Shown here: positions 25,147 to 28,243 of the stretch, piece by piece | Position numbering within the stretch: position 1 is the first letter of the stretch | Layout: each line of letters starts with the position of its first letter | IMG/VR virus record: IMGVR_UViG_2923307698_000007 | Span: 1-51,851 of that record | DNA: 51,851 nucleotides | Reading direction: 5' to 3' (one strand) | Source of the DNA: a virus | Lineage: Duplodnaviria > Heunggongvirae > Uroviricota > Caudoviricetes | Program-made: the position numbers and the translations under genes | Notes under the pieces: generated by a model | Told to the model about the DNA's origin: nothing | Database searches by the model: none | What the model saw: the letters and a program-made list of their open reading frames with translations, nothing else

Positions 25147-25605
25147 TTAGTTCAGGCACTGAGTGCGGATATAGTCCTGTGCCCCTTCCAGCTGCTTCTG
25201 CATTGTCATCAACCGTTCTCTGAGGATGAAATAATCCCGTTCAGCGGTGTCTGCCAGTCGGGGGCCGGTTGCATTATCCACGCCGGAGGTGCCGGTGGCT
25301 TCACGCACGGTACCGGAGCAGGTGGCGTTGATCCGCAGGCGCTTACGACCAGCGGCAACATCAGCACGCAGAGTTTCATTTTCAGCTCTCGCATCGGCTA
25401 ATTCCCTCGAGTATTTTGCATCGAGCGCAGCAACATCGCGCTGGCGCACCTGCATATCAGTAATGGTTGCGTTTGCCAGCTCCAGCTCTCTGGCTTTTTT
25501 ATCGCGCTGCGCTTTGTAGGTGATGACGTTATCGCGGTAATGATTCAGCCCCAGACTAAGCGCACCACAGACCACCAGCAGAATAACGGTAAACGCGGAA
25601 AGCAT
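25147..25605 (-). CDS. Rz: Spanin inner membrane subunit Rz
   Basis: N-terminal TM then coiled coil; strong similarity to recalled lambda Rz; start set at internal ATG (MLSAFTVILLVV). Confidence 0.85.
   Translation of the reverse strand: MLSAFTVILLVVCGALSLGLNHYRDNVITYKAQRDKKARELELANATITDMQVRQRDVAALDAKYSRELADARAENETLRADVAAGRKRLRINATCSGTVREATGTSGVDNATGPRLADTAERDYFILRERLMTMQKQLEGAQDYIRTQCLN
25209..25379 (-). CDS. Rz1: Spanin outer membrane lipoprotein Rz1 (embedded in Rz, +1 frame)
   Basis: MKLCVLMLPLVVSAC lipoprotein signal, Pro-rich mature part. Confidence 0.8.
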   Translation of the reverse strand: MKLCVLMLPLVVSACGSTPPAPVPCVKPPAPPAWIMQPAPDWQTPLNGIISSSENG

Positions 25606-25842
25606 TCGGTTTATGCTCACCCCACCAGCCCTGCCGAAGTCAACGCCATCCAGGTTATGGAAAGAAAAAGAACAACCAGCATTAGTGAAAATGAAATACC
25701 GACGATTACACAAAGGCCCTTCGCCAGCATTATGAGTTTGTCTGACATCTTTACCCCTTAATAGCAGTAATTAACCGGGCAACCACCCATAAAAACGGAA
25801 TCAGCCAGACCAGCAAAAATTTCCAGTCCGTTTTTATCATCT

Positions 25843-26811: not shown

Positions 26812-27345
26812 TTATCTGTCGATTCCCCAGCACGCCAGAGCGCTCTCCTGGTCACGACGGGATACCTGACCATAACAGTTATTTGAGCGAATACGGCAGT
26901 CTCTGCCACCGTCCTTAATCCACCAGCGAATCGCCTCGCATGCTCCCCTGCGGTCACCAGCATTAATCCGTCTGTAAAACGTCGACGGGAAACACTTACC
27001 GGGGCCAATGTTGTACGGACAGAATGACGCAATCCCCGCTTTCTGGGGTTCGGTCAGTGGCACTCTGATGTTTTTCGCCACCCATGCCAGCGCCTTATCA
27101 CGCTCAATGGCGTTAACCCGGTCGCATTTTTCCTTCGACAACTTCATGCCCGGAACGACAGGTTTACCATCCACCAGGATGGCACCGCGGCAGATGGTCC
27201 AGATACCCGCGCCATCACGGTATGCCGTGGTGTGGTTACCTTCCTTTTCATCCAGAAACTGGTCGAGGATTTCAGGCGCAGGCGCACCTGCGGCAATCAG
27301 CGCCAGAACGGCAGCCGACAGGCCGTATCTGATTTTGGTGTTCAT
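26812..27345 (-). CDS. R: SAR endolysin (lysozyme, phage 21 R-like)
   Basis: 177 aa; N-terminal signal-anchor-release helix GLSAAVLALIAAGAPA followed by lysozyme-like domain. Confidence 0.85.
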   Translation of the reverse strand: MNTKIRYGLSAAVLALIAAGAPAPEILDQFLDEKEGNHTTAYRDGAGIWTICRGAILVDGKPVVPGMKLSKEKCDRVNAIERDKALAWVAKNIRVPLTEPQKAGIASFCPYNIGPGKCFPSTFYRRINAGDRRGACEAIRWWIKDGGRDCRIRSNNCYGQVSRRDQESALACWGIDR

Positions 27346-27395
27346 GGATATTTATCAGGGTTTATCGATTTCAAATCCCTGGATATGTTAAGTCT

Positions 27396-27740
27396 TCAGG
27401 CCAGCGGTGGAGTCTTCAGAGAACCAGTAATTATTCCCGGTAGTTTTCCTCTGTAGGTTATCAACACATCCTGCGCCTCTAAAATGATGGGCCGCTTTTC
27501 CGGCAACGGACCATCCCCTTCACATAACCCGGCAGCAACATCCATGAAAAACTGCTTCGCCTGCTTTTTCGCCTCAGCTTCGTAAAACTCCAGCGTGGCT
27601 CCTTCAGTACGGTCAAGACTAATCGCCACATCTGGCAACAACAACGACGGATGCCCGCCAATTTCAAGTGCCACAGTAACAGCAATCTTATCCGGGTAAT
27701 TATTTATCTCTTTAACAACCAGTTCGTATTTTTTCTTCAT
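27396..27740 (-). CDS. Hypothetical protein between holin and endolysin
   Basis: 114-aa ORF, MKKKYELVV start 5 nt after S stop; no recognisable motif. Confidence 0.5.
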   Translation of the reverse strand: MKKKYELVVKEINNYPDKIAVTVALEIGGHPSLLLPDVAISLDRTEGATLEFYEAEAKKQAKQFFMDVAAGLCEGDGPLPEKRPIILEAQDVLITYRGKLPGIITGSLKTPPLA

Positions 27741-27744
27741 CGCT

Positions 27745-27951
27745 TTAGTCTCCCCGCGCCGTCTTACGGCGGTCCTCCCTGATTTTGAAATACAGGTTAG
27801 TCAGATACGTCAGCAGGCCAAACAGCAGACTTCCCAGCACACCTATTGCCACCCACTGGGACGGAGAGACTTTGTCCAGCAGCTGCAGTAACCAGTATCC
27901 CGTCCCCACCGCTGACGTGGTGTATGACACACCTGTTGTGATTTTTTCCAT
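27745..27951 (-). CDS. S: Pinholin S (phage 21 S21-like, class II holin)
   Basis: 68 aa; two TM segments; [15 protein letters not shown] resembles recalled S21. Confidence 0.85.
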
Positions 27952-28206
27952 CTGATGTATGTCTCCGTCACCGCCGACAGAAAATGAAAGTAAAGAAAAA
28001 CAAAAAAGCCGCCAGTGTCACCCACTGACGGCCAACGCCGGGAGCCGTGATTATGGCATTCAGGCTCTGCTAAAAATGCCAGATAACATTCCGGCCTCCC
28101 CTGATTCAGGTTATAAATGACACAATATCTTGACAACATCCGTCACTGTCTGTCAGAAAATGTACTGCCAAATATAAGTATCATGTGAAGTACATCTACC
28201 CGTTTT

Positions 28207-28243
28207 AGCCAGCGTCCTTCAGAGTGGACGCTGGCTTTTTTTA
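28207..28243 (+). terminator. Strong plus-strand intrinsic terminator (orphan orientation) between S and nanS-p
   Basis: 11-bp perfect stem agccagcgtcc/ggacgctggct, 8-nt loop, followed by T7. Confidence 0.55.

Follow-up and report, generated by a model that had tools for sequence, protein, structure and literature searches.

A YdfR-family gene between the S21-type holin and SAR-type endolysin genes of a lambdoid prophage: modular architecture, deletion origin and possible function

The lysis cassette of lambdoid phages is otherwise very well understood, and one of the few unexplained genes within it is the subject of this work: an ORF lying between holin gene S and endolysin gene R in the IMG/VR virus record IMGVR_UViG_2923307698_000007, of which the whole stretch of 51,851 nucleotides (positions 1 to 51,851) was analysed and is referred to below as the window. 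A sequence-only reading of the same DNA had left this ORF without a family and had proposed either a modulator of lysis timing or an unrelated passenger riding the lysis transcript. The locus raises the question of what the gene is, how it acquired its present form at the S-R junction and whether it has any part in lysis. The genes that frame this question are as follows.

31643-32131, minus strand: Q antiterminator gene, upstream of S and ydfR
28244-30094, minus strand: NanS-p-like sialate O-acetylesterase of 616 aa (DUF1737, SASA esterase and DUF6645), directly upstream of S
27745-27951, minus strand: S, S21-type class II holin (pinholin type) of 68 aa, assigned by Pfam and by identity to phage 21 S
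27396-27740, minus strand: ydfR-family ORF of 114 aa, supported by Pfam DUF1327, PHROG 406, the RefSeq name and dN/dS
26812-27345, minus strand: R, SAR-type lysozyme of 177 aa, assigned by Pfam Phage_lysozyme and comparison with phage 21
25843-26538, minus strand: KilAC/Ant antirepressor-family gene, between R and Rz/Rz1
25617-25748, minus strand: ORF of 43 aa, between R and Rz/Rz1
25209-25394, minus strand: Rz1, embedded in Rz

The flanking genes had been taken for a pinholin S and a SAR endolysin R, and Pfam and comparison with phage 21 agree with both identifications. S matches the Pfam family Phage_holin_2_1 ('Bacteriophage P21 holin S') with an E-value of 1.4e-32 and has 75% identity with S of phage 21. 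R, which shares 33% identity with the annotated phage 21 SAR endolysin, displays in its translation a Gly/Ala-rich N-terminal segment (YGLSAAVLALIAAGA) as well as an E-x8-D-x5-T motif. Between them, the minus strand carries an ATG-initiated frame of 114 codons. Along this strand the order is Q, tRNA-Met, a TerB protein gene, the esterase gene, S, ydfR, R, ant and Rz/Rz1, with NinG and a phosphatase gene also upstream of ydfR; since this whole set, from NinG and Q down to Rz/Rz1, shares one strand with the ORF, the latter belongs to a Q-dependent late operon, that of a lambdoid prophage. Over its 3.15 kb, the lysis region shares 99.7% identity with prophages of E. coli O145:H28 and of further strains, and no stx genes were found in the stretch examined, including the interval between Q and S in the window.

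Several smaller features of the surroundings deserve mention. The lysis cassette is interrupted twice, by ydfR between S and R and by the KilAC/Ant gene with the 43-aa ORF between R and Rz/Rz1; the latter arrangement is also annotated in O145:H28 prophages and in Stx phages. The placement of an esterase gene directly before S is likewise as in Stx phages. Two terminator-like hairpins with T-runs lie in the interval that separates S from the esterase gene, one at 28007-28033 on the minus strand, just upstream of S, where a Q-modified polymerase would need to read through, and one on the plus strand at 28207-28236, in the opposite direction.

The ORF does have a recognised family. It matches Pfam DUF1327 (PF07041) over residues 1-112 with an E-value of 1.8e-43 and 147.1 bits (cut-off 25) and PHROG 406 with an E-value of 2.5e-63, and RefSeq names the equivalent gene of the 99.7% identical region 'YdfR family protein', an annotation that also appears in the records of several Stx phages, BP-4795, Stx2-converting phage 86 and Stx2a_WGPS2 among them. 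The earlier label of an unassigned gene does not survive these matches: the ORF belongs to the YdfR/DUF1327 family and lies at the standard site of that family in E. coli. The prototype, ydfR of the cryptic prophage Qin of E. coli K-12, holds the same position in the order essQ-ydfR-rrrQ-rzpQ/rzoQ, with an identical 4-nt junction. As gene, family and position already stand in Pfam, PHROGs, RefSeq and the K-12 annotation, their identification here is a rediscovery; the small additions of the present analysis are the modular structure of the protein, the deletion origin of the 114-aa allele and a mobile pair formed by the N-domain gene and an antisense neighbour.

Comparison with the closest relatives reveals where the family is constant and where it varies. 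K-12 YdfR (b1555, P76160; PF07041, PHROG 406/2091) shares with the window protein the family, the position between holin and lysozyme genes and the 4-nt junction, and the two proteins are 45% identical over aa 1-74 (E 3e-21). Beyond aa 74 they are unrelated, K-12 YdfR ending in a tail of 29 aa whereas the window protein carries a different segment, module B. The genes also end differently: the K-12 ydfR stop codon overlaps the rrrQ start (ATGA), whereas in the window a gap of 50 nt precedes R. Two longer forms are closer to the window protein, the 183-aa form (P0018) being 89% and the common 176-aa form (P0088) 63% identical to it over aa 1-112, with the same S junction in both. These 176/183-aa variants, found in E. 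coli and Shigella prophages (PHROG 2091), possess an extra C-terminal module of about 65 aa, module C, modelled as helical with low confidence, and are followed by a gap of about 320 nt holding an antisense ORF of 86 aa; the window allele has neither the module nor the ORF.

The window protein can be divided into the following parts.

27519-27740, minus strand: N-domain (module A), aa 1-74, three beta-strands and one helix (AlphaFold2 model, alignments)
27405-27518, minus strand: module B, aa 75-112 (GDGPLPEKRPIILEAQDVLITYRGKLPGIITGSLKTPP), delimited by conservation, with pLDDT below 50
27396-27404, minus strand: deletion junction, codons 113-114 (L, A) and TGA stop taken from the R leader (DNA alignment)

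In the AlphaFold2 model, module A begins with three antiparallel strands and ends in a single long helix; over aa 1-70 the block-mean pLDDT is 74-90. It is the conserved core of the family: in an alignment that includes standalone relatives of 72-76 aa, Y5 is nearly invariant and Y53-E54 invariant. Module B (...PEKRPIILEAQDVLITYRGKLPGIITGSLKTPP) is among the most conserved parts of the protein, is confined to YdfR loci in 83 phage records and is predicted to be disordered in the 114-aa and the 183-aa forms alike (pLDDT below 50). Other combinations of the same building blocks exist, namely module A alone (72-76 aa), the 103-aa form of K-12, in which module A carries another tail, and a module-C-like sequence joined to module B. 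This last protein (P0154, 112 aa) has an N-terminal module-C-like coiled-coil sequence and a C-terminal module B in the absence of the N-domain, an architecture which shows that YdfR modules are shuffled independently. The isoelectric point is 5.4 for the whole protein and 5.1 for module A, and the highest Kyte-Doolittle mean over 19 residues is 1.08, which leaves no hydrophobic segment; being acidic and devoid of such a segment, the YdfR of the window should be a soluble cytoplasmic protein, as judged from its composition.

Alignment of the window DNA with loci of the long form indicates how the short one arose. The 114-aa allele is a deletion derivative of the 176/183-aa form, from which about 0.5 kb was lost between two CCACC(G/A)..GGC microhomologies, together with the C-terminal module C and the antisense 86-aa ORF (PHROG 2572). 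In long-form loci this ORF follows ydfR at the following places.

L008, 997-1257, minus strand: antisense 86-aa ORF (PHROG 2572) after a long ydfR allele
L009, 3479-3739, minus strand: antisense 86-aa ORF (PHROG 2572) after a long ydfR allele

The PHROG 2572 ORF overlaps the 3' end of long ydfR and is unrelated to PHROG 25324, the family of another neighbour found beside more distant relatives of ydfR. These relatives, of 72 aa, consist of module A only. One setting, in a Pantoea prophage, is the interval from Q to a lambda-type holin gene; a second lies between the I and J tail genes, and in a third the neighbours are a hicAB pair and a holin gene of another type. In every case a convergent PHROG 25324 ORF of about 100 aa accompanies the relative, and in phage Evi the same pair follows S. 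The scan of genome contigs yielded a single Pantoea locus, so that the taxonomic breadth of these distant relatives is poorly sampled.

L004, 2744-3040, minus strand: PHROG 25324 ORF convergent with a 72-aa N-domain gene
L012, 4249-4548, minus strand: PHROG 25324 ORF convergent with a 72-aa N-domain gene
L015, 4240-4542, minus strand: PHROG 25324 ORF convergent with a 72-aa N-domain gene
L016/L017, 4240-4542, minus strand: PHROG 25324 ORF convergent with a 72-aa N-domain gene

Found in four late-operon contexts, the pair looks like a mobile two-gene passenger module. The PHROG 25324 ORF had no match in Pfam, NCBIfam or PADLOC, and neither it nor the PHROG 2572 ORF matched a known family or defence system. 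Since the 72-aa relatives sit elsewhere in late operons, the YdfR family is not tied to lysis genes; what its members have in common is the orientation of the late operon and not a place beside S and R.

The YdfR family is of small size, with nearly all of its members in prophages of Escherichia and Shigella. Homologues form 277 clusters at 90% identity (among 5.8 billion proteins) and 95 representatives at 50% identity (among 1.84 billion), and relatives are encoded in at least 559 IMG/VR stretches. The 114-aa allele itself is widespread, with clusters of 759 and 464 members, and 65 of 80 examined IMG/VR loci retain its 114-codon frame intact. Pairwise dN/dS is 0.23-0.45, rising to 0.45-0.54 in close comparisons and staying below 1 in every one, and an alignment of 30 diverse members retains 26 invariant columns, with modules A and B strongly conserved; the gene is under moderate purifying selection. 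The view that a well-formed ORF separates S and R is borne out by this spread of homologues and by the dN/dS values, and nothing indicates that the frame is untranslated. Many alternative C-terminal ends and fused or frameshifted versions are deposited in databases. The two main allele types of the N-domain differ by a dS that is high to saturated (1.67, or not computable), whereas module B shows a dS of only 0.18 against an allele whose N-domain dS is 1.67; the contrast is ordinary lambdoid mosaicism.

The presence of the gene is facultative. YdfR occurs in 101 phage records against 427 with an S21-type holin, about a quarter, and ydfR is absent from phage 21 and from Stx1 phage NC_004913. 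In these two sister phages R comes right after S, which places the insertion exactly at the S-R junction, as had been suggested. With classical morons ydfR shares a facultative presence among otherwise collinear phages, but it does not share their other traits, a promoter and terminator of their own and a deviant base composition: its GC content of 0.50 is comparable to that of the flanks, and in the S-R region no promoter-like or terminator-like site bracketing the gene exceeded the shuffled expectation. No Rfam match to an RNA element was obtained for the region.

The junction with S is the most regular feature of the locus. The start of ydfR, which the earlier reading had put 5 nt after the S stop, lies there indeed: four bases (agcg) follow TAA, and the ATG begins at the fifth. 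This 4-nt spacing recurs in 78 of 79 IMG/VR loci and in all annotated loci examined, and an S21-type holin gene precedes ydfR in every E. coli locus inspected, those of Qin, mEp460, Evi and PhiR42_1 among them. The translation signals on either side of the gene are as follows.

27750-27755, minus strand: Shine-Dalgarno sequence GGGGAG for ydfR, within the 3' end of S, 9 nt upstream of the ATG
27346-27395, minus strand: R leader of 50 nt, A/U-rich and without recognisable Shine-Dalgarno sequence (sequence, locus comparison)

In Stx1 phage NC_004913, which has no ydfR, R starts 4 nt after S from a Shine-Dalgarno sequence equivalent to that of ydfR, whereas in phage 21, also without ydfR, S and R overlap. 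Because R of NC_004913 uses the same spacing and the same signal, the ydfR insert takes over the translation start site of R. The 50-nt R leader is conserved in cassettes that bear ydfR, with R starting 50 nt after ydfR in 61 of 80 IMG/VR loci, and the small hairpin that it contains does not exceed shuffled sequence in stability (z 0.32). The insertion probably has a cis effect, in which R, left without the S-proximal Shine-Dalgarno sequence, would be translated less or uncoupled in comparison with cassettes lacking ydfR.

Remote homology searches yielded no further functional clues. Foldseek returned no fold match at E <= 0.001 against PDB and BFVD; sequence searches of PDB gave no match with the single protein and one, at E 0.19, with the family profile. 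NCBIfam and PADLOC had no match for the window protein, and PADLOC none for the long variant or the antisense ORFs. Neither a known lysis accessory protein nor any other lysis-category family was matched by the ORF in Pfam, PHROGs or NCBIfam, and no fold or sequence link between YdfR and a lysis regulator was found. A double-stranded RNA-binding domain was considered and rejected, as an alpha-beta-beta-beta-alpha fold with a significant structural match and a basic surface was not found. A regulator of the holin or antiholin type was likewise rejected on account of the missing transmembrane or periplasmic domain (hydropathy mean at most 1.08) and the missing lysis-family match.

The sole experimental lead on the function of the family comes from the study of K-12 YdfR and RNase E by Gopel et al. 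(RNA Biol 2026; PMC13232886). In a bacterial two-hybrid screen the first 72 codons of K-12 ydfR were recovered three times, residues 1-72 being enough for a signal with RNase E constructs, and the full-length protein gave signals with Rne(1-597) (PMC13232886). FLAG-tagged Rne(1-598), the N-terminal catalytic half, co-purified with Strep-YdfR, as did DNase-resistant nucleic acid, for which the authors do not exclude a contaminant as the source; overproduction of YdfR caused no growth defect and changed few transcripts (PMC13232886). Elsewhere, a screen for envelope leakiness (CPRG) includes the Keio ydfR mutant in its lists (PMC3879167 supplement), a signal that may equally well arise from the kanamycin cassette driving the downstream rrrQ lysozyme gene. 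In a plasmid-library screen, ydfR was among the genes giving a threefold rise in streptomycin MIC (PMC12924614).

The reading that we place first, regarded as quite possible rather than probable, makes YdfR a facultative accessory protein of the cytoplasm, expressed late, whose N-domain would act on the catalytic half of RNase E, in the service of RNA turnover and not of lysis timing. By analogy with K-12, the acidic beta-beta-beta-alpha N-domain would dock on the N-terminal catalytic half of the host enzyme, possibly together with RNA; such docking is proposed for the window protein because the 45% identical K-12 N-domain was shown to bind. Docked YdfR would then modulate the turnover of host RNA during expression of the long late transcript, and the disordered but conserved module B could serve as a second binding segment. 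YdfR would accordingly be neither a component nor a dedicated regulator of the holin-endolysin machinery. Between the two roles raised in the sequence-only reading, the evidence leans towards the passenger, because the gene is facultative (about 101 of 427 records), has relatives outside the S-R interval, encodes no membrane segment, belongs to no lysis-category family and has in K-12 the experiments on RNase E and RNA to its credit.

Several points speak against the RNase E reading. The data come from a homologue whose identity is 45% over aa 1-74 and whose C-terminus is unrelated; they derive from overexpression, two-hybrid and pull-down experiments, with few transcripts changed by overproduction; and acidity is not typical of RNA-binding domains. 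The strict adjacency to S21-type holin genes in E. coli, together with the Keio signal, could point to a role in lysis instead, and the window allele, without its C-terminal module, may not be fully functional. The phiKZ protein Dip, whose sites reportedly lie in the C-terminal scaffold of RNase E, offers a functional analogy only, without sequence or fold similarity to YdfR. If the K-12 result transfers, both are small acidic phage proteins that bind RNase E, but Dip modulates the enzyme and the likeness covers binding, not inhibition, by YdfR; moreover, Dip associates with RNA-binding sites of the degradosome (PMC4980113), whereas K-12 YdfR associates with the N-terminal catalytic half (PMC13232886).

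It is tempting to extend this reading to the YdfR family as a whole, as previously unrecognised effectors made together with the lysis proteins and acting at the RNase E catalytic half on the late transcript, a generalisation that we consider doubtful. Such effectors would target the catalytic half or deliver RNA to it, protecting or processing the long late transcript (in Stx phages the toxin mRNA is part of it), with module B as a second docking peptide; in a variant of the same idea, the family would comprise cytoplasmic timing regulators of the pinholin or the SAR endolysin, of a hitherto undescribed kind.

For the window gene, a direct part in lysis timing is unlikely, in our estimate, but has arguments on its side. 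YdfR would in that case bind the charged C-terminal tail of the pinholin or the unreleased SAR endolysin and tune the time or sharpness of lysis. In phages of E. coli the gene is invariably placed 4 nt behind an S21-type holin gene and translated from signals in the 3' end of the latter, an arrangement that would fix its stoichiometry with S; module B, conserved yet disordered, resembles a segment that folds upon a partner; and there is the Keio mutant on the CPRG lists (PMC3879167 supplement), the signal of which is as easily ascribed to the kanamycin cassette driving rrrQ. Only about one quarter of phage records with an S21-type holin carry YdfR, however, and its relatives are also found beside holins of the lambda and other types, or flanked by tail genes. 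The protein has neither a membrane segment nor a lysis-category family match, N-domain and S alleles are shuffled with no visible co-variation, and K-12 YdfR can be overproduced with no growth phenotype (PMC13232886). The S21-71 antiholin, T4 RI, P1 LydB and BSPM4 ORF52 are encoded within or next to a lysis cassette, like ydfR, but none is homologous to YdfR, which lacks both a hydrophobic segment and a signal peptide. The S21-71 antiholin and T4 RI have their site of action in the membrane or the periplasm. BSPM4 ORF52, a lysis-optimising protein, disrupts the membrane and interacts with the holin (PMC11657625); it was rejected as a parallel to YdfR, being an unrelated membrane protein.

That the window gene is the orphaned half of a two-gene passenger seems to us distinctly improbable. 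The partner of the N-domain would be the convergent PHROG 25324 or PHROG 2572 gene, deleted in the window, and YdfR could be, for example, the late-expressed counterpart of a protein made in the lysogen. The recurrence of the 72-aa N-domain gene with PHROG 25324 in four contexts (Evi, L012, L015 and L016/L017 from Pantoea) agrees with this, as do the different antisense 86-aa ORF, PHROG 2572, preceded by the long E. coli forms and its removal by the deletion behind the window allele. Yet the two candidate partners share no relationship, and neither gave a match to a known family or defence system; an antisense partner is missing from K-12 Qin and mEp460 and from the very common 114-aa allele, and YdfR evidently persists alone, given how widespread the 114-aa allele is (clusters of 759 and 464). 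Least plausible of all, and in our view very unlikely, is a decaying remnant, a truncated allele without function that would be kept only for the translation signals and spacing between S and R. Its origin by deletion, the lost C-terminal module, the many alternative, fused or frameshifted C-terminal ends in databases and a dN/dS that is only moderately low (0.45-0.54 in close comparisons) could be understood in this way, but the frame is intact in 65 of 80 IMG/VR loci and in large protein clusters, dN/dS is below 1 in all comparisons, and modules A and B with their 26 invariant columns are strongly conserved.

The interest of the RNase E reading extends beyond this prophage, as ydfR is found widely among the lambdoid prophages of pathogenic E. 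coli, Stx1 and Stx2c prophages included, and its function has become testable through the recent RNase E lead. If the link holds for phage alleles, YdfR would be an RNase E factor of temperate phages, directed at the catalytic half of the enzyme, and might influence expression of the late transcript and of the toxin; if it tunes the pinholin or SAR endolysin instead, it would represent a new kind of soluble lysis regulator.

A final observation concerns the start of S. At 27949-27963 on the minus strand the window reads GAC ATA CAT CAG ATG, whereas most relatives read GGT ATG TAC CAG ATG, so that the S allele of the window is without the upstream ATG of the dual-start (antiholin/holin) motif of S21-type holins. 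A coupling between the presence of ydfR and the loss of this antiholin start was considered and rejected, as most ydfR cassettes keep the dual start. The single-start allele is common to about 21 of roughly 90 loci examined, and cassettes that carry it may, from their start codons, make only the 68-aa form of the holin.
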